Of a stretch of DNA of 64,000 nt, positions 2,340 through 44,062 are shown in pieces. Source of the stretch: a virus (Duplodnaviria; Heunggongvirae; Uroviricota; Caudoviricetes). The notes under the pieces are model-generated. The model was not told the origin of the DNA and did not search any database. It worked only from the letters and a program-made list of their open reading frames with translations. How positions within the stretch are numbered: position 1 is the first letter of the stretch; every line of letters starts with the position of its first letter. The stretch is from IMG/VR virus record IMGVR_UViG_3300028797_000097. One strand, 5' to 3'. A program made the translations under genes and the position numbers.

Positions 2340-2371
2340 ATATACTATTTATAGTTTCTGATTTTTATAAT

Positions 2372-2398
2372 AAAAAATCACTCCCAAATAGGAGTGAT
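2372..2398 (-). terminator. Rho-independent terminator hairpin (atcactcc/ggagtgat) flanked by A and T runs
   Basis: 8-bp stem with a 6-nt loop. A T-run follows on the minus strand after the end of gene 2420..3895. Confidence 0.55.
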
Positions 2399-2419
2399 TT
2401 ATATTAAATTCTGAAATTT

Positions 2420-3895: not shown

Positions 3896-3940
3896 AAATA
3901 ACCTTTAATTATATGATATTTATAGAATTTAAAGTCTTTT

Positions 3941-3948
3941 TATAAATA
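3941..3948 (+). promoter_or_regulatory. T4-type late promoter motif TATAAATA, 4 nt upstream of ATG 3953
   Basis: Exact TATAAATA. The same motif recurs immediately upstream of many structural genes in this window. Confidence 0.45.
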
Positions 3949-3952
3949 TATT

Positions 3953-4960
3953 ATGAAATTAAAACTAGTATATAAATGTGAAATTTGTGGATTAAATGAC
4001 TTAAATAAGCGTGGTTTAGGTACACATTTACAATTTAAACATTCTGATATTTCTAAAGAAACATATTATAAAAAATATTTAAAATGTATTGATGAAGATA
4101 CTTGTAAAGTTTGCGGGAAACCAACAAAATTTTTATCATTCAAAGTGGGATTTGCTAATTGCTGTTCAAAAGAATGTAGTAGAAAATGGAATAATAAAAG
4201 AATACAAGATAGTAATTTAGATAAATTTGGGGTTAAAACACCATTTGAGTTAAAAGAAATACAAGAAAAAGTTAAAAATACAATAAAAGAAAAATACAAT
4301 TGTGATAATATATTTCAAGTATCAGAAATAAAAGAAAAAATAAAACGGACATTAAAAGAAAAATATAATGTTGAGTACCCGTTAGAGTGTGAATTTTTTA
4401 AGAATAAAGCAAAAGAAACAACGTTTTTAAGATATGGTAATGAAAATTATAGAAATTCATTAAAAGCAGAAGAAACTTGTTTAAAAAACAACGGGGTTAG
4501 ACATCCGGCACAGTCAGGTATAATTGCGAAAAAAACAAGAAGTAAATATATTTATAATAATATAACATTTGATTCTAGTTGGGAACTTGCATATTATATT
4601 TGGTTAAAAGATCATAATATTAATTTTGAATATCATACAATAAAATTAGAATATGAATTTAATAATAATTTATATTATTATTTTCCTGATTTTTTGGTAG
4701 AAAATGATTTGATAGAAATTAAAGGCGATCAGTTTTTATCGGAAACTGGAAATTTAATTTCACCCTATAAAAATACTAATAATGAAAAATTAATTAAAAA
4801 ATTTGAATGCATGAAAAATAATAATGTAAAAATTATTTCTAAAATAGAAATAAAACCTATTATTTTATATATAAAAGAAAAATATGGAAAAAACTTTTTA
4901 AATAAATTTAGGGAGAAAAATCAGAATGTTTCAGAAAACTGCAGAACTTCGTGGTCATAA
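3953..4960 (+). CDS. Zn-finger / tandem-repeat / PD-(D/E)XK nuclease-like protein. It is either homing-endonuclease-like or a DNA-recognition subunit, and it occupies the TerS position upstream of terL.
   Basis: N-terminal C-x2-C-x12-H-x4-H (YKCEICG...HLQFKH). Tandem repeats of about 30 aa (KEKYN...SEIKEKIKRTLKEKYN). C-terminal motif PDFLVENDLIEIKGD resembling a PD-(D/E)XK core. The stop overlaps the terL start. Confidence 0.45.
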   Translation: MKLKLVYKCEICGLNDLNKRGLGTHLQFKHSDISKETYYKKYLKCIDEDTCKVCGKPTKFLSFKVGFANCCSKECSRKWNNKRIQDSNLDKFGVKTPFELKEIQEKVKNTIKEKYNCDNIFQVSEIKEKIKRTLKEKYNVEYPLECEFFKNKAKETTFLRYGNENYRNSLKAEETCLKNNGVRHPAQSGIIAKKTRSKYIYNNITFDSSWELAYYIWLKDHNINFEYHTIKLEYEFNNNLYYYFPDFLVENDLIEIKGDQFLSETGNLISPYKNTNNEKLIKKFECMKNNNVKIISKIEIKPIILYIKEKYGKNFLNKFREKNQNVSENCRTSWS

Positions 4961-7525: not shown

Positions 7526-7636
7526 AAGTTTCGTGTCCCAATAGTAGTCTTTTATTATTTATAGTTTAGGGGTTTACAATTATTTTGAAAAATGTTATAT
7601 TTAGGTCAAACACTTAACAAAAAGGAAAAATCATCT

Positions 7637-8413
7637 ATGAAAAAAATCTATTCAATCTTTATTATGTTGGCGTTTGCACTCTTTACGGGTTGTACGACAG
7701 TCGACGAAACCGAAAGAGCAGTTGTTCTTGAATTCGGTAAGTACAGCGAAACTTTCGGACCAGGATTGCACTTCTATAATGTGTTCATGAAGAGCATTGT
7801 TACGATTCCCGTCAAAACACAGCTTGAAGCAAGCACATTCGAAGCAGGTTCTAAGGACCTTCAGCAAGTTGTTGTATCGTCAAACGTTAACTATCACGTA
7901 GATCCGCAAGCAGTTGGTAAGGTATATTCGAATTATGGTGTAAATTATGTTCAGACTATTCTTCAGCCTAAAATTAAGGAAACGGTTACGTCTATTACAC
8001 CACAGTATGTCCCTGAAGAAATGTTGCAGAAGCGAGAAGAAATTAATATTAGAATGAAAAATGCATTGAAGGCAAAGCTTGATTCTGCAGATGCACATAT
8101 TGTTATCGATGGTTTTACTGTAACTGGTTTCCAATTTACTCCTGCATTTAATTCTGCTATTGAAGAAAAGCAGGTTGCAGAACAGAAGGCATTGAAGGAA
8201 AAGAACGTTCTTAAGCAGATTGAATATCAGAATGAACAGAAGGTCGCAAAGGCAAGAGCTGATTCTACCGAAATGGCAATTAAGATGGCAACATTGAAGT
8301 CCCAGTCTGGCAAGGAATACTTGATGCTCAAGTGGATTGAAAAGTGGAATGGTCAGTTGCCGAATATGATGCCTGGTGATAACAAGATTATCCCAATGGT
8401 TAATGGACTTTAA
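7637..8413 (+). CDS. SPFH/band-7 (prohibitin/HflC-like) lipoprotein
   Basis: RBS aaagga is 7 nt before ATG 7637. Signal peptide MKKIYSIFIMLAFALFTGC with a Cys lipobox. SPFH core (VVLEFGKYSETFGPGLHF...). The annotated 7592 start overlaps a promoter-like repeat. Confidence 0.7.
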   Translation: MKKIYSIFIMLAFALFTGCTTVDETERAVVLEFGKYSETFGPGLHFYNVFMKSIVTIPVKTQLEASTFEAGSKDLQQVVVSSNVNYHVDPQAVGKVYSNYGVNYVQTILQPKIKETVTSITPQYVPEEMLQKREEINIRMKNALKAKLDSADAHIVIDGFTVTGFQFTPAFNSAIEEKQVAEQKALKEKNVLKQIEYQNEQKVAKARADSTEMAIKMATLKSQSGKEYLMLKWIEKWNGQLPNMMPGDNKIIPMVNGL

Positions 8414-8449: not shown

Positions 8450-8482
8450 AAAATACCAGTATTTTATACTGGTATTTTTTTA
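8450..8482. terminator. Bidirectional terminator (ataccagta/tactggtat stem)
   Basis: 9-bp stem flanked by A and T runs between convergent genes. Confidence 0.6.
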
Positions 8483-8824
8483 TTTTTTATTATTATTTCT
8501 ATTATTTTTTGTCTTACTTAATCGCCACTTTAGAAAGTCTCTTACTTTTTGTAAATCTGGATATTTAACGACTTGGTTTTCTGTAATATCATTCCAAATG
8601 TCCATATAACCGTTATACCAGCAGATAAACCACCAATAGTTTTGTGTCCCATACGCACGATATGAAATAATATCTGGACGACATTCATCCATTTTTCTTA
8701 CAAACAGATAAGATTCTTTACCAAAGTCATATCCGTCTTGGAAGAAAGAACCTAAGTCATATTGGGCAATATTATCAACCAATTCTTTATTTAAAAAGTT
8801 TGTTCTACTAGTTATATTATCCAT
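8480..8824 (-). CDS. LysM-like phage tail/baseplate protein (tail protein X-like)
   Basis: RPDIISYRAYGTQNYWWFICWYNG...NQVVKYPDL resembles LysM-like tail-X family motifs. TATAAATA lies 5 nt upstream. Confidence 0.35.
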   Translation of the reverse strand: MDNITSRTNFLNKELVDNIAQYDLGSFFQDGYDFGKESYLFVRKMDECRPDIISYRAYGTQNYWWFICWYNGYMDIWNDITENQVVKYPDLQKVRDFLKWRLSKTKNNRNNNKK

Positions 8825-8832
8825 ATTATTAT

Positions 8833-9654
8833 TTATATCTGATAATTATTATATAAATTACGGTATCTTTCCATTATTAAATGTTTTCCTTTAATATGGT
8901 CAAATAATCCGTCAGTTCTTTCATGTGCTTGATGCATAATTTCAATATCTTTTGAAATTCCAACATTTAAACCAGCATACATAGCATCTATACCCATAGC
9001 TACATCTTCATAACCCCAGCCTTTAGCAAATGTTTTACTGTCAAATAAGGCATTATCTATACCATATTCTTTTTTCATAAATTCTATGTGTTTTAGTAAT
9101 CCTGTTTTAGTTATACCGAAATTACATGACCAGCCAATCATTCCAGTAAGCATTAAATCCATTTTTTCATCAAATGTTTTTGCATTATTCCATGCTTTTA
9201 TTGCACCAGAAGTTATCCTAAGATCGTCATAATTTAATGGTCTTTTTTGCCAAAGTTCATCCATATTAGCGGTCAATAAATCAGATGCTGGAACTTTTAT
9301 GTTATCGATTGGTGTATGTCTTCTAGTTCCAAAGACTAAATCATATTTTTCTAATAATTTTTTATAATTTACAATTACTTTTTTATTTGCTAGCCAAGAA
9401 TCACCATCTATAAAAATTAATGCATCTGTTTTATTATTAAGAAAATATGATATTACAGAATTTCTATTAGTGCATCTTCCAGGATTTTTACTATTATCAA
9501 TTATATAAACATTTTTATAAAAATTAACTGGCATTTTACCATCTGATAATACATATATCATTGTAGGTATTTCAGTTTGATTATATATTGAAAAAATGGC
9601 TTTACTTAAAGATTCTTCTTGATTATGATTTGTTATTGCTATTGTTATATCCAT
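8833..9654 (-). CDS. Family-2 (GT-A) glycosyltransferase
   Basis: IAITNHNQEESL...IYVLSDG, DXD motif IFIDGDSW and a WGYEDVAMG motif. TATAAATA lies 4 nt upstream. Confidence 0.65.
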   Translation of the reverse strand: MDITIAITNHNQEESLSKAIFSIYNQTEIPTMIYVLSDGKMPVNFYKNVYIIDNSKNPGRCTNRNSVISYFLNNKTDALIFIDGDSWLANKKVIVNYKKLLEKYDLVFGTRRHTPIDNIKVPASDLLTANMDELWQKRPLNYDDLRITSGAIKAWNNAKTFDEKMDLMLTGMIGWSCNFGITKTGLLKHIEFMKKEYGIDNALFDSKTFAKGWGYEDVAMGIDAMYAGLNVGISKDIEIMHQAHERTDGLFDHIKGKHLIMERYRNLYNNYQI

Positions 9655-9715
9655 GACATATTTATAAAAAGAAAACCGTCTTTATTCAAGACGGTTTATA
9701 ATATTCTAATTTAAA

Positions 9716-12785: not shown

Positions 12786-12793
12786 TATTTATA
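12786..12793 (-). promoter_or_regulatory. T4-type late promoter TATAAATA (minus strand) upstream of the 1014-aa fibre gene
   Basis: Exact motif 25 nt upstream of the start at 12760. Confidence 0.45.
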
Positions 12794-12889: not shown

Positions 12890-13200
12890 ATATTTTTTAC
12901 ATTAAAGTCCTATTACTGGCTCGGAGTTCAACTCAATGAATTGTCGGATAAGTTTAGGCTAGTTGGAATCATAGGTGTGGTTCCAGGTAAAAACTAATTC
13001 ACCATCGACGTATTACTATAGCATGTAATACTTTAAGCCGCCATTGGTATTGAAAGATGTAGCTGGAGTACAGGATGACCGACCCATAAGCTTTCAAATA
13101 AATCCACTTAGTCGAAGACAGATGATCTTTTGCCTATTTTCCTAAATAGGCTTATTGTCTCAGAACAGATATTTTGAACGTGTGTGTAGATAAGTTTAAT
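12890..13200. other. ORF-free region of about 300 bp with visibly elevated GC and several hairpins. Candidate structured RNA (sRNA, tRNA-like or intron remnant).
   Basis: No ORF of 60 aa or more. The region reads as GC-richer than its surroundings (estimated about 45% against a genome-typical 32%). It contains a perfect 8-bp stem gcctattt/aaataggc and a ggtg...cacc hairpin. Confidence 0.25.
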
Positions 13201-13211
13201 ATAAATAATAT

Positions 13212-14022: not shown

Positions 14023-14059
14023 AACGTATTGTTTACATAGCAATACGTTTTTCTATATT
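14023..14059 (+). promoter_or_regulatory. Composite terminator hairpin plus sigma70-type promoter (TTTACA-N16-TATATT)
   Basis: Stem aacgtattg/caatacgtt with the -35 element in the loop, then a T-run and CTATATTT. The -10 ends 7 nt before ATG 14067. Confidence 0.5.
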
Positions 14060-14994: not shown

Positions 14995-15933
14995 TTAAAG
15001 AATTTTATAACCTTTTTGCTTTAAGAATTCAACCGCTTCTTGTACTTGCCTACTTGATCTTCTTTGCATGATTTCTTGTTGGAATTTTTGAGTAAATTTC
15101 TTAAGAGCATCTGGATCTTTTATCTCTGCAGGTAATCTATCGTAAACACCAAGTTCTTCAGCTTTTTTACAAAGGACGTTTGGTCTAAAACGTTTAGTAA
15201 TAACAAGGTCCATAATTTCATCTTCTGTTCCAGTGCGAAGAATATCTACAACTTCAGGTTGAGTTCTAATTTCCAATCTATTCCAAATCTTTGGTTTCAT
15301 AATTGGTTGGTTGAAATTGAACTTATAACTATCTTTATTTGCTCTTGATTGCAACTGACCGATAGTATAACCTTTTCTAATTAATTTACTATGGTTTCCA
15401 GAATAGAAATCAGCAATATCGCTTTCATCTTTCCAACCTTCAATAGTTGCTTTTAATATATGTTGACGAACAGCCTTTTGAACTTCTGCATCAGGTTTAA
15501 TATCAATGTCTAAGTCATTATTCGGCATTGCAACATAATCTTGAGAAGTATCTTCATCGTCTTCCTTAGGGAAACGGTTGATAGTTCCGGTATATTCAGG
15601 AATGTCGATATATTTGTTCTTATACTGTTCGATTACTTCATCAGTTAAAATTTCAGAAACGAACCAAGGAACACGATAATTTTCACCCATGGTTAAATAA
15701 CCAAACATTAAAGCTCGTTTTGCAAAATTATCTGCTCTTTTTAAGAACTCACTTTTTTCTTCCCTGTTATTACCAACATTGCCACTTTTTAAGAATTTGA
15801 TTAAGTTAGTAATTGTATTATGACATGCTACGAAATAACTTTTTTTGTATTGGCTATTTTTATTTTCTTCTACAAGTTCTTTAGTTTTTGCAAGTGCTTT
15901 TCTCAAGCCAAGCATTAATGAATCATATCCCAT
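14995..15933 (-). CDS. Hypothetical protein (312 aa)
   Basis: Clean ORF on the opposite strand between early genes. Confidence 0.45.
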   Translation of the reverse strand: MGYDSLMLGLRKALAKTKELVEENKNSQYKKSYFVACHNTITNLIKFLKSGNVGNNREEKSEFLKRADNFAKRALMFGYLTMGENYRVPWFVSEILTDEVIEQYKNKYIDIPEYTGTINRFPKEDDEDTSQDYVAMPNNDLDIDIKPDAEVQKAVRQHILKATIEGWKDESDIADFYSGNHSKLIRKGYTIGQLQSRANKDSYKFNFNQPIMKPKIWNRLEIRTQPEVVDILRTGTEDEIMDLVITKRFRPNVLCKKAEELGVYDRLPAEIKDPDALKKFTQKFQQEIMQRRSSRQVQEAVEFLKQKGYKIL

Positions 15934-15991
15934 AGTATTTTCCTTAATTTTTATTATATTTATAAAAAATACGGATAAATGTAAAATTTTA

Positions 15992-16019: not shown

Positions 16020-16051
16020 TTATATGATATAATATAAATAGAATAAAAAAT

Positions 16052-17533
16052 ATGGTTGATATTGTAATTGAAAAATCTAACGAATCTTTTGCTCAGCTAC
16101 ATTGTGACGAAGAAATAAATCATGAAATAAATAACCTTTTTTCGGCTTTTGCTCCAGGTTATAGATTCAATCCAAGATATGTAAATCACCTCTGGGATGG
16201 AAAAACCAGAGTCTATTCTCCTATTACACAGTTACTTCCAATAGGGTTAGTTTCTAACCTTATGAAGTGGTGTGATACTAAGAAATATACGTATAAAATG
16301 GATTTTTTCGATGATTTTACTGATGAAATTGATAAGGATGAATTAAGAGAAACTATCAATGGATATGTAAAAAAATTCGATGTAAGAGATTATCAGTTTA
16401 AGGCAGTTTATGAAGCATTAACTAATAAGAAAGGTATTTTGCTTTCTTGTACTGGTTCTGGTAAATCTTTGATGATTTATTGCATTTTCAGATATTTGCT
16501 TGAAAAGAAGAAATTGAAACATTTATTGCTTATTGTTCCTAATACATCGCTCGTAGAACAGATGTATACAGACTTTATTGATTATGGTTGGGATAATATC
16601 GAAGATTCTGTTGAATTATTGTATTCTGGTAAGAAACCAACTTATAGATTACCAGTTTTGATTTCCACTTGGCAAAGTTTACAAACTCAAGATAAGAGTT
16701 TCTTTGATAAGTATAATTGTGTTCTTGTTGACGAGTGCCAACAGAGTAAAGCAAACGTTCTTTCAAAAATTTTGAAAGCTTCATTCAATGCAGAATATAA
16801 GATAGGAACTACTGGTACTTTACCTAAGGAATTATCTGACCAGTTAGTTATTAATTCGGTCATTGGTAACGTTATTTTTGAATTGAAATCCTCTCAACTT
16901 ATCGATGAAGGATATTTGGCTAAAATGTCTGTTGCTGGTATTTTCTTGAAATATCCAGATGAATTTATTGCAGAAAATAAGAATAGAACGTATCAAGAAG
17001 AAGTAAAGATGGTCGAGGAATATGAGAATAGAAATGACGTCCTCAAGTTTATTATTGACCATTCGAAACCTACTGATAATATGCTCGTTTTATTGACTCA
17101 TAAGGCACATTTACAGTCTACTATTGAATATTTAAAGAAGTTATATCCTGATAGAAATGTAAGCGAAATTAGTGGTGATATTAAGACTAAGACTAGAGAA
17201 AATATTAGAACAGGAATTGAAAATGAAGAAGGTTCGATAATTGTTGCTACTTATAAAACAATGGCAGCAGGTGTCAATATTCCTAAATTACACAGTGTCG
17301 TTCTTTATTCTAATAGTAAATCCAGAATCCAAGTTTTACAGTCTATTGGTAGAGGATTGAGACTTCACAAGACTAAAAATAAGGTCATTATTTACGATAT
17401 TATTGACGATTTAAGTTATAAAACAAGAACTGGAAAAACCAAGAAAAATTATTGTATGCAACATTACGATGAAAGATTGGAGTTCTATAAAGAACAGAAT
17501 TTCCCAGTAATTACGATAAATCGCAACATTTAA
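16052..17533 (+). CDS. uvsW: UvsW-like SF2 DNA helicase
   Basis: The N-terminus HCDEEINHEINNLFSAFAPGYRFNPRY...WDGKTR aligns with the T4 UvsW N-terminus. Walker A TGSGKS, VDECQ and FLKYPDEF...KNRTYQEE are conserved. Confidence 0.85.
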   Translation: MVDIVIEKSNESFAQLHCDEEINHEINNLFSAFAPGYRFNPRYVNHLWDGKTRVYSPITQLLPIGLVSNLMKWCDTKKYTYKMDFFDDFTDEIDKDELRETINGYVKKFDVRDYQFKAVYEALTNKKGILLSCTGSGKSLMIYCIFRYLLEKKKLKHLLLIVPNTSLVEQMYTDFIDYGWDNIEDSVELLYSGKKPTYRLPVLISTWQSLQTQDKSFFDKYNCVLVDECQQSKANVLSKILKASFNAEYKIGTTGTLPKELSDQLVINSVIGNVIFELKSSQLIDEGYLAKMSVAGIFLKYPDEFIAENKNRTYQEEVKMVEEYENRNDVLKFIIDHSKPTDNMLVLLTHKAHLQSTIEYLKKLYPDRNVSEISGDIKTKTRENIRTGIENEEGSIIVATYKTMAAGVNIPKLHSVVLYSNSKSRIQVLQSIGRGLRLHKTKNKVIIYDIIDDLSYKTRTGKTKKNYCMQHYDERLEFYKEQNFPVITINRNI

Positions 17534-18792: not shown

Positions 18793-19923
18793 ATGGCAAA
18801 TAAATTACTTGCGAAGATGAAGAAGGATAAGGCTTTTGTAGATTTGTTAACTACAGAAAAGAAGCCGATTGAATGGTTAAGTACCAACTGTATCTCAGTA
18901 AACTTATTGCTTTCTGGTAAAATCAGAGGTGGTATTAAGAAAGGTTCAATCAGTATGATTGCAGCAGGTTCTGGCTGGGGTAAATCTATGATTGGTTATG
19001 CGGTTCTCAAGTCTGCTCAGGATTCTGGTATGAACTGCTTTATTATCGACACAGAAAACAGTGTCAACTATGAATTGCTTACAAAACTTGGTATTGATAT
19101 GAAGGAAGTCGGTGTTTTCGGTCCGACAAACCTTATTCCAGCAATTAAGCAATTTATTATTAAGCTGGCTGATGGTCAGACTTTGGAAGAAAGACGTAAT
19201 ACCTTTATTTTGTTTGACTCTTGGGGCCCACTTGTTACCCAACAGTCTGTTGATAAGGGTGCAGAAGGTAGTTCCGCTGCTGATATGGGTAGCACTCCAA
19301 GATTCAAGAACGAACTTGCTAACCATTTGCTCGGTGCTGGTTTTACTACTCTCGTTATGAACCACGTCTATGCTTCTCTCGAAATGTATGGTGATCCGTA
19401 TAAGATTCCAGGTGGTATGAGACTTATCTTTAATGCTGATTCCATTATGCTTGGTTCTAGTGCTAAGAAGGAAAAGGATAAGGAAAAGAACATTCTCGGT
19501 AAGATTATTACTGCAGGTGTTGCAAAGGGTCGTTCTGCTAAGGAATTCGTTAAGACACAATATCTTATCTTGCATGCTGGTGGTATTTCTCCATATTACG
19601 GTTTGCTTGATGAAGCCATGGAATCTGGTTGTGTCTTCAAGCCGAAGCCGGGATATTATGCTAGAACTGATTATGACGTCGATAAGGAAACTGGCGAAGT
19701 CACTAAGCAGTGGAGAGAAACAGAACTTTATTGCGCACAATTCTGGATTCCATTATACAAGGATGAAAAGTTCAGACATTATGTAGAAAATAAGTTCGCA
19801 TTCGAAGATCAGGTTCTTATTTCTTCTAACCAGGACGTCATGAAAATGCTCAATGGTGAACAGGAAATCGTTGATGATGCTCCAGAAATTATTGATTCTG
19901 AAGAGTATGAAGACGAAGAATAA
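18793..19923 (+). CDS. uvsX: UvsX RecA-like recombinase
   Basis: ISVNLLLSGKIRGGIKKGSISMIAAGSGWGKS and PGYYARTDYDVDKETGEVTKQWRE match T4 UvsX blocks. It has an acidic C-terminus. Confidence 0.9.
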   Translation: MANKLLAKMKKDKAFVDLLTTEKKPIEWLSTNCISVNLLLSGKIRGGIKKGSISMIAAGSGWGKSMIGYAVLKSAQDSGMNCFIIDTENSVNYELLTKLGIDMKEVGVFGPTNLIPAIKQFIIKLADGQTLEERRNTFILFDSWGPLVTQQSVDKGAEGSSAADMGSTPRFKNELANHLLGAGFTTLVMNHVYASLEMYGDPYKIPGGMRLIFNADSIMLGSSAKKEKDKEKNILGKIITAGVAKGRSAKEFVKTQYLILHAGGISPYYGLLDEAMESGCVFKPKPGYYARTDYDVDKETGEVTKQWRETELYCAQFWIPLYKDEKFRHYVENKFAFEDQVLISSNQDVMKMLNGEQEIVDDAPEIIDSEEYEDEE

Positions 19924-20032: not shown

Positions 20033-21412
20033 ATGACTGATATTGAATTTGAACAAATAATTATTAAGACAATTTATGCAAATCCTGAAGTTTCTGGTAA
20101 GATAATTCCAGAACTTGATACTGGTTGGTTCACAAATGTTGACCACAAATACATCGTTAATGCCATTTTGGAATATAATTCTAAGTTTTCTGCAGTTCCT
20201 AATGCGATTGAAGTTAAAAGACTTTTGTCTGATCAGAGAACAGTAGATGAATTCGAAAAGTGCATGTCTATTAACGATGCAGATGTTAATACACCATATA
20301 TTCTTGATGAAATTCAGAATTTCATTAGAAAACGTTTAGGTAGACAAGTATGTATGGATTATAACGAATATTGTTCTACAGGTAAGTCTAAAGGTAGTTT
20401 TGCTGATGAAATGGCTTATGCTGAAACATTTACGTTTGATACCAAGGTTGGTTTCTCATTCTTCGAAGAACCAGAAGTAATCTTTAATGACATTATTACT
20501 AATGAAAGATTATATCCTACTGGTTGTAGAGCAATCGATGAAATGATTGGTGGTGGTTTACATCCTAAGTCTATTTCTTTGATTATGGCTCCTACCAACG
20601 TTGGTAAAACTTTGTTTATGTGTTCTATCGCATCTGCATTATTACTTGCAGGTTTGAGAGTTCTTTATGTTTCATTCGAAGACTCTGAAGTTAAGATTGG
20701 TCAAAGAATCATGCAGAATTTGTTTGATATTAACCAAACAGAACTTAGAGCTTTGTCTAAGGATGCATATAAGAAGCTTTGGATGAAGAATACACAACAG
20801 ATTGGTCATAATAAGCTTGTTATTAAGGAATATTCAGAAGGTTGTATTAATGCACTTGCATTGAAGGCATTGATTAGAGAACTTAGAGACAAGCGTGGTT
20901 TCGTTCCTGATGTATTGATTGTTGACTATATCGGATGTATGATTCCTAATGGACGACCAAATGCAAATGAAAACGATAACTCCAAGTTAAGAGAAATTTG
21001 TGCTCAGGTTAGAAGTATTGGTATGGAAATGGATATTCCAGTTCTTTCTGCAGCACAGTCTAACAGAGGTGGTTATGGTAAGGGTGAAATTGGACTTGAT
21101 GATGCAGCTGACTCTTTCGGTCAGACAATGAAGGCAGACGTTATCTTTGGTGTTACTCAGTCTCCAGAACTTAAGGAAGGAAGTATGTATCTGGTTAAGC
21201 TTCTGAAGACCAGATATGGTCAACCAAAGTGTCCATTAGCTACGATTGGTGTCGATATTGGTAAACAGCGTATTTTTGACTTGAAGACATTTAATAATGC
21301 TGCAGTTCCAACACAAGGTGCCAATATATTTAATCAACCACAAGAGCAACAATCTGTTTCTGCTTCTAATATTGAAGTAACACAGAATAATTTAAACACT
21401 TTTGAATTTTAA
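20033..21412 (+). CDS. DnaB-family replicative helicase (T4 gp41-like)
   Basis: Walker A MAPTNVGKT, Walker B LIVDYIGCM and the H4 block AAQSNRGGYGK. Confidence 0.8.
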   Translation: MTDIEFEQIIIKTIYANPEVSGKIIPELDTGWFTNVDHKYIVNAILEYNSKFSAVPNAIEVKRLLSDQRTVDEFEKCMSINDADVNTPYILDEIQNFIRKRLGRQVCMDYNEYCSTGKSKGSFADEMAYAETFTFDTKVGFSFFEEPEVIFNDIITNERLYPTGCRAIDEMIGGGLHPKSISLIMAPTNVGKTLFMCSIASALLLAGLRVLYVSFEDSEVKIGQRIMQNLFDINQTELRALSKDAYKKLWMKNTQQIGHNKLVIKEYSEGCINALALKALIRELRDKRGFVPDVLIVDYIGCMIPNGRPNANENDNSKLREICAQVRSIGMEMDIPVLSAAQSNRGGYGKGEIGLDDAADSFGQTMKADVIFGVTQSPELKEGSMYLVKLLKTRYGQPKCPLATIGVDIGKQRIFDLKTFNNAAVPTQGANIFNQPQEQQSVSASNIEVTQNNLNTFEF

Positions 21413-21424
21413 TGAAGGTAACTT

Positions 21425-21805
21425 ATGATAAACGTATCAGACTTATCAGTAAATGAGGAAGTAACAGAATCTGAGAGCAAAGATTCTTTTTACAAGCGAC
21501 TTAAAGCCGCTGGTATAGACTTTGACGACATCGATTCTGATTCCAGATTACCTAAATATATGATTAAGGTAATCAAGAATGAACCCAAGGAATATAATAA
21601 GTTCAATAATGTTCTTTATAAGCTTAATAAGGATAAGATTGTTACTATTGTCGATTCTATGGCCTATTTGGTCGAGGATTGGTTTGAACCCAATATCTTG
21701 ATTAAGTGTTTAGACGAAATGAACTATTATTCCCTTATGAACGGGTTAAAAAAGAAGTATTTAGTAGATAGAAGTTCATCTGATTTAGAAAATTTCTTTG
21801 TCTAA
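21425..21805 (+). CDS. Hypothetical protein (126 aa)
   Basis: ORF between the helicase and the loader-like gene. Confidence 0.4.
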   Translation: MINVSDLSVNEEVTESESKDSFYKRLKAAGIDFDDIDSDSRLPKYMIKVIKNEPKEYNKFNNVLYKLNKDKIVTIVDSMAYLVEDWFEPNILIKCLDEMNYYSLMNGLKKKYLVDRSSSDLENFFV

Positions 21806-22439
21806 TATGGTTGATAAATATCAAATTTATATGCTGTATAAAACCGTTAAGAAAATGTGGAATGCAAAACGGTTTAATACAGCAGTTTTTAACGATTTTT
21901 TTGATGATACTTTAGAGAACTATCTAATTTCTCAGTATATACATGAAAGTCCTAGAGTAGAATATATGGCAAATTACGGAATTAAGCTCGTAAATGAGAT
22001 TAATTGCGGTTTAATTGATGTTGAACATTGGTTAATGTATGTCATGATGAAGTGTCTTTGTGACAAAAAATGTCCCGAAATGCCCGAAATAAATTCTATA
22101 AATAAATTAAAGGACAACATGATTTTCAAAAAACGTCCTATTATAGATTCTCAAATCAAGCTTATTCAGAGTTTAATTGCTGAGAAAGGTTCTGGTTTGA
22201 ATGAATTTATGGACACAAGATTCTCTTTGTATGATCTGGACGCGAATCAAGAAAATCAAGCCTACAAAATGTATAGTATAAGCCAGTTGGATCCTGAGTT
22301 TTACATCCAGGGTTTTAAGGCAGGGAAGTTTAAAATAGATATGGACAAGATTAAGAGTATTGATTACAAAAGATTTATAATGTTTACAAAGATGATATTA
22401 AAATTAAATCAAGAAATATCAGATAAAAATGTAAACTGA
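21798..22439 (+). CDS. gp59-like helicase loading protein (putative)
   Basis: 213 aa against 217 aa for T4 gp59. It lies directly upstream of gene 32 as in T4. The N-terminus YQIYMLYKTVKK resembles gp59 YKLYLMIKQH. Confidence 0.4.
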   Translation: MSNMVDKYQIYMLYKTVKKMWNAKRFNTAVFNDFFDDTLENYLISQYIHESPRVEYMANYGIKLVNEINCGLIDVEHWLMYVMMKCLCDKKCPEMPEINSINKLKDNMIFKKRPIIDSQIKLIQSLIAEKGSGLNEFMDTRFSLYDLDANQENQAYKMYSISQLDPEFYIQGFKAGKFKIDMDKIKSIDYKRFIMFTKMILKLNQEISDKNVN

Positions 22440-22521: not shown

Positions 22522-23589
22522 ATGCCAATAAAGAGAAATAACTTGAACGCACTTTATAGTGCAATGGATAACCTTAACATCGGTAAGAAAGACAACAAGC
22601 AGAAGTCATACGAAATCGAAGGCTTATTTAAGCCAAAGATGGGTGCTGACGGTAAGTTTACTGTTGTTCTTAGATTCCTTCCAGCACACCCAGACGAGGA
22701 AATTCCTTGGGTAGAAAACCGTTCTCACATGTTCCAGCTTTCTAATGGTGCATGGTTCGGTTGTGACTGTGCTAAGAAGTGGAATGAACCATGTCCGATT
22801 TGTGATTATAACGCAAAGATTTGGAATAAGTATGGTAGAACCGATGAAGCTCGTTCCCGTGTAAAGGATAAGTGGAAGCCAAAGTTCTATTCTAACGTTT
22901 ATATCGTTAAGAATCCGAATGCTCCAGAAACAGAAGGTCGTGTTTATCGTCTTGAATATGGTCGTGCAATCATGAAGATGATTCAAGATGCAATGGCTGA
23001 TAAGGATGATGCCGAACTTGGTGTAATTCCAGGTATTAATCCGTTCTCCTGGTGGGGTCCGAACGATAAGGCAGTTCTTGCTGGTGATGATAAGGCTGGT
23101 GCAAACTTTGTTTGGGAAGGCGTTAAGGGTTCTAACGGTCCTAACTACTCTAGCTCTCACTTTAGCAATCCTCGTAGAATGTGCAAGCTTGGTCAGGATG
23201 GTAAGCTCGTCGAAATGACTGATGCAGAACTTGATGTCGTTGAATCTCAGCTCTTCACATTGAAGGATATTGAAAAGCAGAAGGATCAGCTCCGTTCTTA
23301 CGAAGACATTCTTAAGTTCTACAAGACCAAGAGTGGTGAAGATTTGTTTGCAGAATTTGAAGATGGAACTGATTATACTGCAACTGTCAATACAGGTAAG
23401 ACTGTAGAAGCTGATGATGACGATATGTTTGAATCAACTCCGAAGAAGACTGCAGAAGTTCCAATGGAAAAGGAAGTTCCTACTGAACCGCTTTTCGAAC
23501 CAGAATTTGAAGCAACAAAGCCAACAACTTCTAGTGTCGAAGCAGCGGAAGATGAAGAAGACTTCTTTGCAAGACTTGCAAATGGTTAA
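22522..23589 (+). CDS. gp32 single-stranded DNA-binding protein
   Basis: LRFLPAHPDEE, a zinc site (H...CDC...CPIC) and YIVKNPNAPETEGRVYRLEYGRAIMKMIQDAM aligning with T4 gp32 [31 protein letters not shown]. It has an acidic C-terminal tail. Confidence 0.9.
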   Translation: MPIKRNNLNALYSAMDNLNIGKKDNKQKSYEIEGLFKPKMGADGKFTVVLRFLPAHPDEEIPWVENRSHMFQLSNGAWFGCDCAKKWNEPCPICDYNAKIWNKYGRTDEARSRVKDKWKPKFYSNVYIVKNPNAPETEGRVYRLEYGRAIMKMIQDAMADKDDAELGVIPGINPFSWWGPNDKAVLAGDDKAGANFVWEGVKGSNGPNYSSSHFSNPRRMCKLGQDGKLVEMTDAELDVVESQLFTLKDIEKQKDQLRSYEDILKFYKTKSGEDLFAEFEDGTDYTATVNTGKTVEADDDDMFESTPKKTAEVPMEKEVPTEPLFEPEFEATKPTTSSVEAAEDEEDFFARLANG

Positions 23590-24734: not shown

Positions 24735-24787
24735 TTAAATTCTGACATTTTTATAAGAAGAGAAGATTTCATATCTTCTCTTTTTAT

Positions 24788-24795
24788 TATAAATA
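24788..24795 (+). promoter_or_regulatory. T4-type late promoter TATAAATA, 4 nt before ATG 24800, preceded by a terminator hairpin
   Basis: Exact motif. Upstream hairpin agagaagat/atcttctct. Confidence 0.45.
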
Positions 24796-24799
24796 ATGT

Positions 24800-25948
24800 A
24801 TGGCAGTTAATGAAGATAAAAAATTATCAGATTATGAACTAAAGACTTTGAGAGAGCTTCAACAGTCTAGCAATACAGCATATGTTCCAGCATTTACTGA
24901 AACAGAAAACTATAAATTTGATTCTAAAGAATTAAATGGACAAGTTTTACAGGCTGGAACTAATGTAACTATTGATAATAATAACGTAATTCGTGCTACA
25001 GATACAAAATTAAAAAGTAGTGATAATATTTCTGTTACATCAGATAATAAATTAGTATATACTGGTCCTCAAGGAGAAGGAACAGATCTTGAAGAAGATA
25101 GTACAAATTTATCAATTGGAAGACAATCAGATGGTAAATATAAAGTAAATCTTAATCTTGGCTATGGTTCAGAAGTAGCACAAGTTCATAGCGGTGCAAC
25201 AACTTATAATTGTACTTCTACATTTTTTACTTCTTCAGATGGCGGTAAATCAATAAAAGGTAATTTTGCAGGATTTGTAAATAATGCCATAACATTTGGT
25301 AGAGACCCAAATGAAGGTAATGTTCCAAATAGTAACCTTAATCTTGTTATTAGTGAAGATATTTCTGTGCAATATTGGAATGGTGGTTCAACAGATAGAT
25401 GGATTTTAGCTACTCCAGATGATGTATTATCATTTAAAAAAGTAAATGGAACATATCCACCTTATGCAAGTCGTGTTCGTGGTGATTATTATTCTCAGCT
25501 TATTTTTAATATGCCAAATATTGCTGCATTAACTTTACATACATGGTGGCTTCAACATGTAACTCATAGAGAGAATATTTTTGTTCAAGTTAATATGGGT
25601 GAAAGAATGCATGCATTATATATTTTTAATGGTATTGGCGATGATAATGAAGGTGCAAATTTTTATTTCTATCATAATGGATTAGTATATAAAAAAGAAA
25701 ATGTAAGTAAAGGAACTTTTGTTAATATTGCTAATATAGTTAACTGGAAATTATATACTGATTTATCTGGGTATGGAATTGAAAATGGTGCAGGCAACTC
25801 AAGACTAGTTAATTCATTACCTTTTACAACAAACACTAGAGGTGATGGTCAGGATGAATGGCTGATTTGCACAGTTCAAAGATTTTATTGTATACATGAA
25901 ACAGTTAATAATAAACATAATTATTATTTTATTGAATCTATGTATTAA
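24800..25948 (+). CDS. Tail fibre / receptor-binding-like protein, paralog 1
   Basis: Shares an N-terminal module (AGTNVTIDNNNVIRATDT...DNISVTSDNKLVYTG) with the next two genes and with the long fibre at 53190. The C-terminus is variable. Confidence 0.5.
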   Translation: MAVNEDKKLSDYELKTLRELQQSSNTAYVPAFTETENYKFDSKELNGQVLQAGTNVTIDNNNVIRATDTKLKSSDNISVTSDNKLVYTGPQGEGTDLEEDSTNLSIGRQSDGKYKVNLNLGYGSEVAQVHSGATTYNCTSTFFTSSDGGKSIKGNFAGFVNNAITFGRDPNEGNVPNSNLNLVISEDISVQYWNGGSTDRWILATPDDVLSFKKVNGTYPPYASRVRGDYYSQLIFNMPNIAALTLHTWWLQHVTHRENIFVQVNMGERMHALYIFNGIGDDNEGANFYFYHNGLVYKKENVSKGTFVNIANIVNWKLYTDLSGYGIENGAGNSRLVNSLPFTTNTRGDGQDEWLICTVQRFYCIHETVNNKHNYYFIESMY

Positions 25949-29313: not shown

Positions 29314-29350
29314 TTTTTTATAAATAATATAAAATTATTAAGGAGAAAAC

Positions 29351-30637
29351 ATGAATTTAAGTGAAGCAAGAGATATTCTCGGTAAATGTGGATATTCATT
29401 TTTGAAAGAATCTACAGAATTAACCAGAGATATTATGCTTAAATATGCTAAGCAATTAGCACAGCAAAATGATAAAATTGGTATTATCAAGGGAAAAAAC
29501 CCAGAAGATGGTGATTTTGATATAATCATTTATTATAATAATGATAAGATTAAAGTTGCATCATATAAAGGTTATGAAAATGAAGTTTATGTAAGGGAAT
29601 TCAAGAGTTCTTTATCTGGAATGCCAGCAAAGAAAGTTGAAACCTTAGAAGATTTACGTTCATATATTGATTCTACATTGAAATATATGGAAAAATATAA
29701 AGAAGACAACAATAATCAATACAAAACAAGTGTCGAAGATATTGAAAAAGATAAGGAAGAATGGGCTAACAACATGGATCAAAACGAGTCATTAAAACTT
29801 AAAAAAGCATTACAGTTCCTTGCTGAATGCGGTTATACAATTAGTAAAAATACAAGAATTGATGAAATGTCTCGTGCATCTGACCGTGTTCTTGGTCATG
29901 ATTCTGCAGAAAACTTGCTTTATATGCTTGCTGACTGGAAGAAACAGTATGACAGAACTGGTAAGAATGCTACATTAGGTCAATTTGCCAAATTTGTTCA
30001 AGATAATGGCATTAGTTGGGACTTAATTAGTGGTCTCAGCTTACCAGGATTACCAAGAACAGAACCTCCTACACGTTCATCTAGGAGAATTGATTTGGAA
30101 GCTATTATTGCTTCTTTACAAGGTCAGCTTGGACAAGATGTTAGCGATGTTCGTAACCGTGTTGATTTAGGTAAGGATGATTACGATAGATTAATCGACA
30201 CCTTCTGGGATTATTATGAAAAGAACCGTGATGGTGAAGATGTTTCTGCACTTGTTGATTCTGAAAATTTCCAGGCACTCATTAGATTGTTTGCTGAAGA
30301 ACCAGAAACTGCACAGGAAGTCTTTGGTAGAAACTATGACAAGGCTAATAGCAAGTTACAGAGATTTATTAATCCTGATTCCGCAGCTGCTTTGATTGGC
30401 GAATTCTGGGATTGGTATTATGCTAAGAAGGCTGGTCGTGACATTGACTTCGATCCAGAAAAGGCAGAAAAGATTGCAGACTTGCTTGAAACCCCGAATG
30501 CTAAGGATGAAATTTTCGGCGGTAACGGTTCTTACTATACTGTTCTTAGAACAATTAGTAACATTGTTGGTAGACAGCTTGGTCAGAGAGATGCAGACTT
30601 CGATTACGATTCTTTGAATGGTGATTTGAGCCTCTAA
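29351..30637 (+). CDS. Member of the N-terminal-module family (two copies of the module), 428 aa
   Basis: Strong RBS aaggag. MNLSEARDILGKCGYSFLKE at the N-terminus and a second copy LKLKKALQFLAECGYTISKNT at about residue 145. Confidence 0.5.
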   Translation: MNLSEARDILGKCGYSFLKESTELTRDIMLKYAKQLAQQNDKIGIIKGKNPEDGDFDIIIYYNNDKIKVASYKGYENEVYVREFKSSLSGMPAKKVETLEDLRSYIDSTLKYMEKYKEDNNNQYKTSVEDIEKDKEEWANNMDQNESLKLKKALQFLAECGYTISKNTRIDEMSRASDRVLGHDSAENLLYMLADWKKQYDRTGKNATLGQFAKFVQDNGISWDLISGLSLPGLPRTEPPTRSSRRIDLEAIIASLQGQLGQDVSDVRNRVDLGKDDYDRLIDTFWDYYEKNRDGEDVSALVDSENFQALIRLFAEEPETAQEVFGRNYDKANSKLQRFINPDSAAALIGEFWDWYYAKKAGRDIDFDPEKAEKIADLLETPNAKDEIFGGNGSYYTVLRTISNIVGRQLGQRDADFDYDSLNGDLSL

Positions 30638-32919: not shown

Positions 32920-33795
32920 TTGTTATTGATTATGAGAACAATCCAGACAATACAAAATCAATATGATAATATCATGAAGCCATTAGTATGGTCGGATAAA
33001 GTTGCAAAGAATTTTTTGAATTGTATAAAAAATCCAATTGTAGTAGAAAAGAAAGACATGATACCGCAATGGAAGATTTGTACTGTTAGCGACACTAAAA
33101 GACGAACTGAAAGTATTGGTTCTACTGATGTTTTAATTTTAGATTATGATGATCCGAATTATAGCATAAAGGAATTTGAAGATAGTTTTAGAGAATATTT
33201 CTATGTATTACATACTTCACATTCTTATGATGGAACAAACCAGAAGTTCAGAGTATTTTTGTTTCTTGATAAAGAATATGATATAAATAGAATGTTTTAT
33301 AAATGTTTTAATCAAGCATTTAGTCCATATCATTTTCTTGTAAATTATTTTCCACATGCAGATAAGGCATCATTCGTTAGAGCACAGTTCTTTAAGGTTC
33401 CTTGTGTAAAATATAAAGGTGCACCTTATTATTACAGTTGTCATAACGGTAAGTTATTTGACCCTGCTAGTGCAATCGGGTTTGAATTTAGAATGGCTTA
33501 TGAATATTGTGTAGAGAAACAAGAAGAACATCTTAAGCAACTTGAAAAACGAGCAAAATGGTATCGCAAGATGCATGGTTCAATCGATTTAACGAATGCA
33601 AAACAATATATAAATGAAAAGATTGAAACATGTGAAGCTGGTGGTAGACATATGCAGATTTTAGGTCTGGCATGTTGGTTTAAGAAGATTGGCGGAACGT
33701 TTAAAGAATTTGAGGAAATAATGCCATCATGGGCTGATAAAGGTTTCCATAAACAGATGGAACATATTAGACATGAATGGGATAGATTTAGGTAA
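32920..33795 (+). CDS. Archaeo-eukaryotic-type primase (Prim-Pol, BT4734-like) with a C-terminal PriCT-1 domain
   Basis: hhhDhD motif VLILDYDD, sxH motif YVLHTSHSYDG.NQKFRVFLFL and a PriCT-1-like GGRHMQILGLACWFKKIGGTFKEFEEIM. Confidence 0.55.
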   Translation: MLLIMRTIQTIQNQYDNIMKPLVWSDKVAKNFLNCIKNPIVVEKKDMIPQWKICTVSDTKRRTESIGSTDVLILDYDDPNYSIKEFEDSFREYFYVLHTSHSYDGTNQKFRVFLFLDKEYDINRMFYKCFNQAFSPYHFLVNYFPHADKASFVRAQFFKVPCVKYKGAPYYYSCHNGKLFDPASAIGFEFRMAYEYCVEKQEEHLKQLEKRAKWYRKMHGSIDLTNAKQYINEKIETCEAGGRHMQILGLACWFKKIGGTFKEFEEIMPSWADKGFHKQMEHIRHEWDRFR

Positions 33796-35108: not shown

Positions 35109-35157
35109 TTTAAAATAACATTTAAAAAGAAACCGCTTTTAACAAGCGGTTTTTTAT

Positions 35158-35165
35158 TATAAATA
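35158..35165 (+). promoter_or_regulatory. T4-type late promoter TATAAATA, 7 nt before ATG 35173, preceded by terminator aaccgctt/aagcggtt
   Basis: Exact motif. The upstream hairpin plus T-run at 35131-35156. Confidence 0.45.
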
Positions 35166-39118: not shown

Positions 39119-39177
39119 TATTTAAATTAATTAGAAAACTATAAATATATAGAATTTTTAATAAGAAGGTAATAAAA

Positions 39178-43986: not shown

Positions 43987-44062
43987 TAAATAAACCAGGA
44001 GTAAATCCTGGTTTTTTATTTTAGGGTTTACAACTAAAAAATATTTGCTATATTATAATATT

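Follow-up and report, generated by a model that had tools for sequence, protein, structure and literature searches.

Several late mRNAs of an uncultured T4-related jumbo phage probably begin at or beside the start codon

Several late mRNAs of an uncultured jumbo phage from the ruminant gut (rumen), a distant relative of phage T4, probably begin at or beside their start codons. This conclusion is drawn from the sequence of a 64-kb stretch of its DNA, hereafter called the window, in which the octamer TATAAATA repeatedly lies a few nucleotides before an ATG that lacks a Shine-Dalgarno (SD) sequence. We judge it likely that this octamer serves as a T4-type late promoter and that it gives leaderless or near-leaderless mRNAs at the short-spaced genes, as a first-pass annotation had proposed. 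Every sequence-level test that was run supports this reading, namely box enrichment, the bimodal relation between spacing and SD, the placement of terminators, the lack of alternative starts, persistence of the arrangement in relatives, and how T4 and phage CBB differ.

Results

The phage and its relatives

The phage is a member of a group of large, widespread, T4-related jumbo phages that are uncultured. Its genome measures about 415 kb (330-470 kb in its relatives), such that the window represents about 15% of the total, and only 5.5% of the window is non-coding. PHROGs and Pfam searches identify T4-family genes for gp15-like, UvsW, UvsX, gp41-like, gp32 and gp25-like proteins, a T4-type set for replication, recombination and tail formation; the same searches leave most genes downstream of boxes without an assigned function, and the window holds no tRNAs. 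By UvsX, the nearest cultured group is the Rak2-like jumbo phages, at only about 27-30% identity. Neither a megablast search with 12 kb nor a tblastn search with the product of the gene starting at 24800 matched any of 50,697 phage records. When that protein was scanned against IMG/VR, JGI metagenomes and GTDB genomes, only near-identical relatives were recovered, and the diverged relatives used for comparison (loci designated L plus a number) come from exact-protein look-ups.

A T4-type late box is concentrated just upstream of genes

The exact octamer occurs 27 times in the window, 1.85-fold above the 14.6 ± 4.0 occurrences in dinucleotide shuffles, and none of 100 shuffles reached 27. The chance expectation given originally, about 10 hits per strand, was somewhat high, as the shuffles yield about 15 for both strands together. 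The boxes sit on the gene's own strand and are concentrated just 5′ of genes: 19 of the 27 lie no more than 100 nt upstream of a same-strand gene start, a placement for which the 55 other permutations of the octamer average 3.2 sites. Enrichment near starts over a shuffled background, the test named in the first-pass annotation, is strong. With the upstream regions themselves (75% A+T) as the material for 1000 dinucleotide shuffles, the 60-nt upstream regions contain 17 boxes where 1.75 ± 1.3 are expected (maximum 8), and spacings of 4-11 nt are found for eight boxes where 0.28 are expected (maximum 3; mean 0.6 for the other 55 permutations). One-mismatch boxes are almost absent near starts, and a search for them produced no convincing additional short-spaced site. 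Among the 19 exact boxes upstream of same-strand genes, no column is conserved in the 20 nt 5′ of the box, and thus there is no -35 element.

Ten boxes had been reported before, and their coordinates and spacings in nucleotides are all exact: 3941 (4), 24788 (4), 35158 (7), 53158 (24) and 45105 (76) on the plus strand, and 2353 (6), 7563 (30), 8837 (5), 9666 (4) and 12793 (25) on the minus strand. Nine further boxes were found, at 13200 (4), 16033 (11, UvsW), 29319 (24), 39140 (30), 17535 (40) and 18688 (97) on the plus strand and at 53123 (19), 3924 (21) and 15964 (23) on the minus strand. The description of the downstream genes as structural or late is borne out only for those encoding the gp15-like and gp25-like proteins and UvsW, the last being a late gene in T4. 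An HNH endonuclease and several very large ORFs also stand behind boxes, and most of the products have no recognizable function.

Spacing separates genes with and without a Shine-Dalgarno sequence

The distances between box and ATG fall into two groups. In the short group they are 4, 4, 4, 4, 5, 6, 7 and 11 nt, all without an SD, and in the long group they are 14-40 nt, with an SD always present. No exception to this relation was seen in the window or in loci L003, L006, L007, L018 and L020, where the SD energy is -0.4 kcal/mol or weaker at spacings of 11 nt or less and -3.0 kcal/mol or stronger at 14 nt or more. The eight short-spaced genes all start with ATG and have anti-SD duplex energies of +0.2 to +2.3 kcal/mol, whereas the other genes of the window have a median of -5.3 kcal/mol, most of them having strong SDs, as had been noted earlier for the early genes. 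Boxes with longer spacings are the following.

3917-3924, minus strand: late box 21 nt before the ATG at 3895, with SD; gene for a gp15-like tail sheath stabilizer (2420-3895), divergent to the box at 3941
53116-53123, minus strand: late box, 19-nt leader with SD AAGGAG
53158-53165, plus strand: late box, 24-nt leader with SD; 1128-aa ORF
29319-29326, plus strand: late box, 24-nt leader with SD AAGGAG
12786-12793, minus strand: late box, 25-nt leader with SD; 1014-aa ORF
15957-15964, minus strand: late box, 23-nt leader with SD
39140-39147, plus strand: late box, 30-nt leader with SD; 1602-aa cadherin-domain ORF
7556-7563, minus strand: late box 30 nt before the ATG at 7525
17535, plus strand: late box 40 nt from the start
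45105, plus strand: late box 76 nt from the start (nrdD in the first-pass annotation)
18688, plus strand: late box 97 nt from the start

The likely start site can be read from the bases that follow the box. A purine peak stands at the fifth nucleotide after the box, which is A at 15 of the 19 sites (9 of 12 long-leader sites) and which coincides with the A of ATG where the spacing is 4 nt (N4). We infer that transcription starts at this position. In T4 the late box occupies -13 to -6 (PMC1524935). The purine peak there is at the sixth nucleotide, and strict T4 geometry, with +1 at that nucleotide, would put the start of N4 transcripts at the U of AUG, such that a shift of 1 nt is needed. At the N6, N7 and N11 sites, leaders of 2-7 nt would be predicted. 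Leaders of this length make poor leaderless mRNAs in Escherichia coli. The candidate leaderless mRNAs form only weak structure in their first 36 nt (mean -0.75 versus -1.97 kcal/mol, n = 8).

Short-spaced sites and their terminators

The eight short-spaced boxes and the hairpins associated with them are arranged as follows.

24788-24795, plus strand: late box TATAAATA, 4 nt before the ATG at 24800
24796-24802, plus strand: spacer ATGT and the ATG of a 382-aa ORF (24800-25948); the A of ATG is the predicted +1
24753-24787, plus strand: intrinsic terminator hairpin and T-run, -16.8 kcal/mol, ending 1 nt before the box at 24788
3941-3948, plus strand: late box 4 nt before the ATG at 3953; HNH homing-endonuclease-like ORF (3953-4960), in a 57-nt divergent intergenic region
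13200-13207, plus strand: late box 4 nt before the ATG at 13212; 156-aa ORF
13132-13151: terminator-like hairpin 47 nt upstream of the box at 13200
9659-9666, minus strand: late box 4 nt before the ATG at 9654; family-2 glycosyltransferase gene (8833-9654)
9673-9697, minus strand: intrinsic terminator hairpin directly 5′ of the box at 9666, -13.1 kcal/mol
8830-8837, minus strand: late box 5 nt before the ATG at 8824; gp25-like baseplate wedge ORF (8480-8824)
2346-2353, minus strand: late box 6 nt before the ATG at 2339; 593-aa ORF (558-2339)
2375-2400, minus strand: intrinsic terminator hairpin 5′ of the box at 2353, -15 to -16 kcal/mol
35158-35165, plus strand: late box 7 nt (ATGTAAG) before the ATG at 35173; 264-aa ORF
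35127-35155, plus strand: intrinsic terminator hairpin directly 5′ of the box at 35158, -13.9 kcal/mol
16033-16040, plus strand: late box 11 nt before the ATG of the UvsW gene (16052-17533), no SD

Because hairpin and T-run terminators lie immediately upstream of the boxes at 24788, 35158, 9666 and 2353, the genes behind these boxes appear to be independent of read-through. The gene at 24800, whose anti-SD energy is +2.3 kcal/mol (no SD), encodes a product with a poor, all-beta AlphaFold model (pLDDT 54), and neither a Foldseek search against the PDB nor a PDB sequence search with this product gave a match.

The arrangement is conserved yet varies between orthologues

In relatives whose proteins are 68-86% identical, the box, the ATGT spacer and the ATG of the 24800 gene are unchanged, and the segment ATTATAAATAATGT-ATG is identical in L003, L005 and L020 (68-72% protein identity). 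The DNA upstream of this conserved box is wholly unrelated in L003 and L005, and hairpins of different sequence occupy the place of the 24753-24787 terminator in L020 and L018. A homologue at 34% identity has a terminator followed by TATAAATA and then a 15-nt leader with the SD AAAGGAAAA, and thus the promoter is kept whether the leader is present or absent. The arrangement at 35158 is identical in L002, L003 and L020, and the L006 orthologue of the 13212 gene also has TATAAATA-ATGT-ATG.

Other orthologues differ in spacing. For the glycosyltransferase gene, the box is at N4 in the window, at N6 in L006, and has the form aATAAATA-N4 in L007. The gp25-like gene has its box at 19 nt in L006 versus 5 nt in the window, and the reverse is seen for the 7525 gene, whose box is only 6 nt from the ATG in L006 versus 30 nt in the window. 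The UvsW gene has a box at 9 nt in L005 and none in L006, where CTATATT alone precedes the ATG, at a distance of 6 nt. In relatives of higher GC content the box takes the variant form TATAAACT. In L009, the 12-nt palindrome AGTTTATAAACT comprises two divergent boxes, each 6 nt from an ATG, within a 24-nt intergenic region.

Early promoters can also abut start codons

The habit of placing a promoter against a start codon extends to the early sigma-70-type promoters of two to four genes. Sequences of the form TT(G/T)ACA-N16/17-(C)TATATT fit the bacterial scheme of a TTGACA-like -35, a 16-18-bp spacer and a TATAAT-like -10. About 11 intergenic sites have such a sequence, in front of the replication genes for UvsW, UvsX, the gp41-like protein and gp32. 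Two of these promoters end close to an ATG.

14032-14059, plus strand: early promoter TTTACA-N16-TATATT, 7 nt before the ATG at 14067 of a DHH phosphoesterase gene, no SD
44027-44054, plus strand: early promoter with 8 nt between the end of its -10 and the in-frame ATG at 44063

The promoter at 14032-14059 had been noted previously as a sigma-70-like element ending 7 nt before its ATG, and we confirm it. L005 and L006 retain the 7-nt gap with different spacer bases. The early -10 of UvsW, CTATATT at 16013, lies 32 nt before the ATG.

Discussion

Alternative explanations

The short-spaced genes could instead be translated from longer transcripts that start upstream, with initiation at an internal AUG that is independent of an SD and relies on termination-reinitiation coupling or on ribosomal protein S1 binding to an unstructured A/U-rich stretch. 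On this account the box would act as an AU-rich enhancer of translation, or would be a promoter with no bearing on the short-spaced genes. We regard this account as unlikely, even though two sites speak for it. The box at 8837 overlaps the stop codon of the glycosyltransferase gene and the ATG follows 8 nt past this stop, so that translational coupling could explain this site. Likewise, UvsW lacks an SD even on the leader of about 25 nt that its early promoter would provide, and therefore SD-independent initiation on leaders probably does occur here. However, a strong terminator ends 0-20 nt before the box at four of the seven sites with spacings of 7 nt or less, one other site is in the 57-nt divergent intergenic region, and another is preceded at 47 nt by the terminator-like hairpin. 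A role as enhancer is also at odds with the same exact octamer being present 19-40 nt upstream of SD-led genes, too distant for a ribosome-binding site, and with the near absence of one-mismatch variants near starts.

Three other accounts were rejected. Mis-called start codons, with true starts downstream and boxes followed by ordinary leaders, are rejected on start and homologue evidence and seem to us very improbable. Longest-ORF calling did misplace other starts in the window (7592, 21798, 32920, 35955 and 44045), but no SD-led in-frame ATG, GTG or TTG exists in the first 45-70 codons of any short-spaced gene, and in both UvsW and the glycosyltransferase the Pfam or PHROG domain starts at residues 1-3. 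Moreover, about 100 homologues of the 24800 product, 378-388 aa long, share the same Met start and the N-terminus MAVNEDKK, and independent gene callers picked the same starts on other contigs. An archaeal host (Methanobrevibacter), with TATAAATA acting as a TATA box and transcription starting about 25 nt downstream, was considered because binning had placed contigs of this phage in two goat-gut MAGs that carry the label Methanobrevibacter sp., the GC content of about 32% is similar, and the motif resembles a TATA box. Bacterial signals make this highly unlikely: eleven intergenic sites fit the sigma-70 form TT(G/T)ACA-N16/17-TATATT, the terminators are of the bacterial hairpin and T-run type, and the gene content is that of bacterial T4-like myoviruses. 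Archaeal starts would also place the N4-N7 transcripts inside ORFs and would leave SDs untranscribed, because these sit between box and ATG, and composition-based binning of large low-GC phage contigs is error-prone. Finally, the proximity of boxes to starts might reflect chance in AT-rich intergenic DNA, given that upstream regions are 75% A+T and that the window-wide excess is only 1.85-fold. The enrichment at 4-11 nt, where no shuffle in 1000 exceeded three sites and the other permutations average 0.6, and the persistence of the arrangement in diverged relatives leave this account with virtually no credibility.

A possible route from box to protein

If TATAAATA is a late promoter giving leaderless mRNAs, it would presumably be read by host RNA polymerase carrying a phage sigma factor of the gp55 type, through a single -10-like box and no -35, as in T4 late promoters. 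About 40% of the late promoters in the window (8 of 19) would leave no 5′ leader. Transcripts from the four N4 sites would have the A of AUG as their first base, and those from the N5-N7 sites would start 0-3 nt before AUG. The ribosome would then bind the 5′-terminal AUG without SD pairing, while the remaining late promoters (14-40 nt) would give ordinary SD-led mRNAs. Because an internal AUG without an SD would be poorly translated, only transcripts from the late promoter may be translatable, which would tie the translation of these genes to late transcription.

More tentatively, the fusion of promoter and AUG could be a deliberate control device in this clade, whereby protein is made only from a gene's own late or early promoter and never from read-through, an idea that we think is doubtful. 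If true, it would constitute a promoter-coupled translational license in place of the hairpin occlusion used by T4, and would imply a host, or a phage-modified ribosome, with a high capacity for leaderless translation. In T4, RegB performs an SD-directed shut-off, and the mRNAs considered here would also escape control of this kind.

With regard to the factors involved, the window encodes one candidate.

21425-21805, plus strand: 126-aa protein, a candidate late co-activator of the gp33 type; its conserved C-terminus is a clamp-binding-like tail ending in SDLENFFV

PHROGs, Pfam, phmmer and PDB sequence searches revealed no gp55 homologue in the 64-kb window, about 15% of the genome, and no gp45 homologue was detected there. 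Both may lie elsewhere, as the genome spans about 415 kb.

Relation to known systems

T4 late promoters consist of the box TATAAATA and are served by the gp55 sigma factor, the gp33 co-activator and the gp45 sliding clamp (PMC1524935). The phage described here shares with T4 the identical 8-bp box, the lack of a -35 element, the placement of boxes before genes for tail and baseplate proteins, UvsW and a homing endonuclease, and genes for gp32, UvsX, UvsW, gp41-like and gp15-like proteins together with the candidate gp33-like protein and its clamp-binding-like tail. In contrast, every T4 box is at least 13 nt from its start (0 of 26 at 12 nt or less), usually 23-29 nt, which leaves room for an SD, whereas 8 of 19 are at 4-11 nt here. 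The Rak2-like phages CBB and GAP32, also jumbo phages distantly related to T4, have a T4-like late motif, ATAAATA, upstream of structural genes (PMC5259590). The boxes in the sampled structural region of CBB are 28-58 nt from starts, all with an SD and none short-spaced.

The Thermus phages YS40 and Lalka27a have mRNAs that begin with the A or G of the initiation codon, transcripts from late promoters included (bioRxiv 10.64898/2026.04.20.719267). Their late -10 is TAGGGT and leaderless mRNAs are the norm of the host, whereas only a subset of genes is concerned here and most have strong SDs. The cI transcript of phage lambda from PRM is leaderless as well, but is an isolated regulatory case. 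In poxviruses, the core of the late promoter (TAAATG initiator) overlaps or abuts the ATG. These eukaryotic viruses use their own RNA polymerase and produce poly(A) leaders by slippage, and the likeness is one of resemblance only, without homology. For T4 genes e, soc, 49 and I-TevI, hairpins hide the SD in early read-through transcripts (PMC3014915). The functional logic may match, in that only transcripts started at the late promoter would be translatable, although the means is an RNA hairpin in T4 and would be a need for a 5′-terminal AUG here. A literature search on leaderless mRNAs with TATAAATA, T4-like or late promoters found no earlier description.

T4 late transcription is a textbook system in which promoters always leave a leader and a ribosome-binding site, whereas at many genes of this phage the box is joined to the start codon, in an arrangement that is conserved yet variable between orthologues. 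Should 5′-end mapping confirm the predicted starts, abundant late genes would be translated by the leaderless route in a host that relies on strong SDs otherwise, and nature would have a simple means of letting the promoter in use determine translation. Such starts may be mis-scored by gene callers and annotators that insist on a ribosome-binding site. The TATAAATA-N4-ATG rule also defines compact modules of promoter and start codon that are directly testable in reporters.

The phage and its relatives

The window has a GC content of ~32%, and megablast with 12 kb of it matched none of 50,697 deposited phage genomes. Its T4-type gene set marks it as a distant T4 relative:

2420-3895, minus strand: gp15-like tail sheath stabiliser
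8480-8824, minus strand: gp25-like baseplate wedge protein
16052-17533: UvsW
18793-19923: UvsX
20033-21412: gp41/DnaB-like helicase
21425-21805: candidate gp33-like co-activator (126 aa), between the helicase and gp32 genes
22522-23589: gp32
45189-47660, plus strand: NrdD

UvsX shares at most 27-30% identity with that of any cultured phage, jumbo phages being nearest. Homologues of window proteins, exact or close, occur on metagenomic contigs of 330-470 kb, two of which are from goat gut, and one copy of the Rfam 'cow-rumen-2' RNA is present in the window. Together, these features place the source in a clade of uncultured jumbo phages from the ruminant gut.

The RNA (RF02947, an orphan structured motif from rumen metagenomes) lies at 13004-13110 (plus strand, 102.8 bits), flanked by an early-like promoter (12855) and a terminator-like hairpin, just upstream of the gene starting at 13212. 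A syntenic copy occurs in a 366-kb relative (L006 3368-3473, minus strand, 96.8 bits), and thus the motif is carried by jumbo phages.

Late boxes near start codons

The first-pass annotation had proposed that the 8-nt T4-type late box, TATAAATA, abuts start codons and yields leaderless or near-leaderless mRNAs. The ten box sites that it listed are exact in position and spacing, and nine further boxes lie upstream of genes. Although the raw count of 27 boxes only moderately exceeds that in shuffles (14.6 +/- 4.0), the positional signal is far stronger. Specifically, 19 of the 27 precede a same-strand gene start by no more than 100 nt in a window that is only 5.5% non-coding, whereas the 55 other orderings of these eight letters give 3.2 such sites on average. 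Enrichment near starts against a shuffled background, the check suggested at the outset, gives 17 boxes in the 60-nt upstream regions (75% A+T) versus 1.75 +/- 1.3 expected from 1000 dinucleotide shuffles. The 20 nt preceding the box contain no conserved column, and therefore no -35 element.

Box-to-ATG distances fall into a short class of eight genes (4, 4, 4, 4, 5, 6, 7 and 11 nt) and a long class of eight genes at 19-30 nt, plus single genes at 40, 76 and 97 nt. None of the eight short-spaced genes has a Shine-Dalgarno (SD) sequence (anti-SD duplex energies of +0.2 to +2.3 kcal/mol), whereas SDs are mostly strong at the other genes (median -5.3 kcal/mol, with 70% at -4 or stronger). The few remaining SD-less genes mostly have mis-called starts or an ATG just behind an early promoter. 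Five related loci show the same split: boxes at 11 nt or less all lack an SD, and those at 14 nt or more all have one.

Predicted transcription start

In T4 the late box spans -13 to -6 (PMC1524935), which makes the sixth nucleotide after the box +1; correspondingly, the T4 genome has a purine peak there (20/26). In the window the peak is at the fifth nucleotide, with A in 15 of 19 sites. This A is also present at 9 of 12 long-leader sites, where it cannot derive from an ATG, and relatives carry a purine at this position in 16 of 18 sites counted from their sequences. From this base composition, we infer that transcription starts at the fifth nucleotide. At 4-nt spacing this would be the A of the ATG, making the mRNA perfectly leaderless, while spacings of 5-7 nt would leave leaders of 0-3 nt and the 11-nt spacing of UvsW one of ~7 nt.

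We consider it probable that TATAAATA acts as a late promoter of the T4 type and that its mRNAs, at sites spaced 4-7 nt, are leaderless or nearly so, with translation beginning at a 5'-terminal AUG. To the extent that sequence analysis can show, and with the start site predicted, the original proposal is supported. A plausible consequence is that only transcripts begun at a gene's own promoter would be translatable. In T4 genes e, soc, 49 and I-TevI, a hairpin that hides the SD likewise restricts translation to own-promoter transcripts (PMC3014915).

Alternative explanations

Ribosomes might instead initiate without an SD on transcripts arriving from upstream, which we regard as unlikely overall. 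Strong hairpins with a trailing T-run terminate immediately ahead of boxes 24788 (-16.8 kcal/mol), 35158 (-13.9), 9666 (-13.1) and 2353 (about -16), and a terminator-like hairpin (13132-13151) precedes box 13200. Box 3941 shares a 57-nt divergent region with box 3924, the back-to-back box of the gp15-like gene. Short-spaced genes would thus mostly not be fed from upstream. Box 8837 is the only one to overlap the preceding gene's stop codon, which makes translational coupling possible there; SD-independent translation is viable at this site and perhaps contributes at UvsW.

Mis-called starts are very improbable: the first 45-70 codons of the short-spaced genes contain no in-frame ATG, GTG or TTG with an SD, the UvsW N-terminal and glycosyltransferase domains begin at residues 1-3, ~100 homologues (378-388 aa) of the 382-aa product of the gene at 24800-25948 (plus strand) share its N-terminus, and gene callers chose the same starts on independent contigs. 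An equally slim prospect is that the box is an archaeal TATA box, a reading prompted by two goat-gut MAGs labelled Methanobrevibacter sp. that include the phage contigs JAFQXD010000042.1 (191 kb) and JAFRFB010000097.1 (173 kb), but opposed by sigma-70-type promoters, bacterial-type terminators and SD positions. Because promoters and terminators are bacterial-type, this placement is most likely a binning artefact, and the labels could mislead host assignment. Chance placement is least credible of all, with eight boxes at 4-11 nt against 0.28 expected from dinucleotide shuffles of the upstream regions.

Elsewhere, the longest-ORF starts of 7592-8413, 21798, 32920, 35955 and 44045 are probably wrong; likely true starts are an ATG near 7640, ATG 32932 (for 32920), ATG 35970 (for 35955) and ATG 44063 (for 44045). 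ORF 21798 is 213 aa as called, versus 210-211 aa in relatives.

Conservation and comparison with other phages

Before the 24800 gene, ATTATAAATAATGT-ATG is identical in relatives with 68-86% protein identity, and in L003 and L005 the sequence farther upstream is entirely unrelated. A homologue with 34% identity (L018/L019) has its own terminator and the same TATAAATA, followed by a 15-nt leader with the SD AAAGGAAAA. Across these homologues, the promoter appears to be constant and the leader optional. The gene at 35173 keeps box-ATGTAAG-ATG in relatives, and the orthologue of the 13212 gene in L006 has 4-nt spacing. Other spacings vary: the glycosyltransferase gene has 4 nt in the window, 6 nt in L006 and aATAAATA-N4 in L007, the 7525 gene 30 nt versus 6 nt in L006, and the gp25-like gene 5 nt versus 19 nt in L006. 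Relatives L008 and L009 (46-50% GC) use a variant box, TATAAACT (L008 13889; L009 730, 14702 and 19284). In L009, a 12-nt palindrome, AGTTTATAAACT (15527-15538), comprises a pair of divergent, overlapping boxes, with an ATG 6 nt away from each, within an intergenic region of only 24 nt.

The 26 boxes upstream of T4 genes are spaced at least 13 nt and usually 23-29 nt, with none at 12 nt or less. The jumbo phage CBB, a T4 relative with the late motif ATAAATA (PMC5259590), has spacings of 28-58 nt in its structural region, with an SD at every one. Short spacing is thus absent from T4 and from the single CBB region sampled. A literature search found no report of T4-type late promoters giving leaderless mRNAs; Thermus phages make leaderless late transcripts, but from other promoter motifs. 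The proposal of leaderless mRNAs from such boxes is specific, concerns a conserved arrangement and depends on the predicted start site.

HNH/DUF7487 homing-endonuclease-like genes are inserted at differing places (window 3953-4960, plus strand; L002 2337-3413; L003 3421-5061). The window copy is driven by a late box at 4 nt, recalling the late expression of T4 homing endonucleases.

One late box inside a plus-strand ORF, 21798-22439 (22097-22121), precedes 14 nt with an SD and the in-frame ATG 22119, is kept in L003, L005 and L020, and could yield a shorter late isoform of 107 aa, like internal starts in T4 genes. Another intragenic TATAAATA, in plus-strand ORF 32932-33795 (33282-33294), is kept in L003 and L020 and has an in-frame ATG 2 nt downstream.

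Early promoters and transcription machinery

A second motif, TT(G/T)ACA-N16/17-(C)TATATT, occurs at ~11 intergenic sites, mostly before replication genes, and fits a bacterial sigma-70-type early or middle promoter. Only 7 nt separate its end from the ATG of the DHH phosphoesterase gene, just as the first-pass annotation stated, and this spacing is kept in L005 and L006 although the spacer bases differ. The motif also ends 8 nt before ATG 44063, 11 nt before ATG 32932 and, in L006, 6 nt before the UvsW ATG. Since early promoters are also short-spaced, fusion of promoter to AUG appears to be a general habit of this clade, extending beyond late promoters, and suggests that the host, or the infected cell, can translate leaderless mRNA.

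Searches of the window, which covers only ~15% of the genome, yielded no homologue of gp55 or gp45. The candidate gp33-like co-activator is identical on 193 contigs and has a confident structure model (pLDDT 81.7). The protein ends in a tail (...SDLENFFV, conserved as L-x-x-F-F-x) similar to those with which T4 gp33 (...TLDFLL) and gp55 (...SLDFLY) bind the clamp.

NrdD is 823 aa in the window versus 716 aa in L006, and its PHROG match falls into two segments (residues 3-408 and 478-822), a pattern suggestive of an insertion of ~70-100 aa. Finally, a paralogous family with the N-terminus MNL-x-EA is encoded at 29351-30637 (plus strand) and, as three tandem copies on the minus strand, at 50994-51605, 51620-51994 and 52008-52442.
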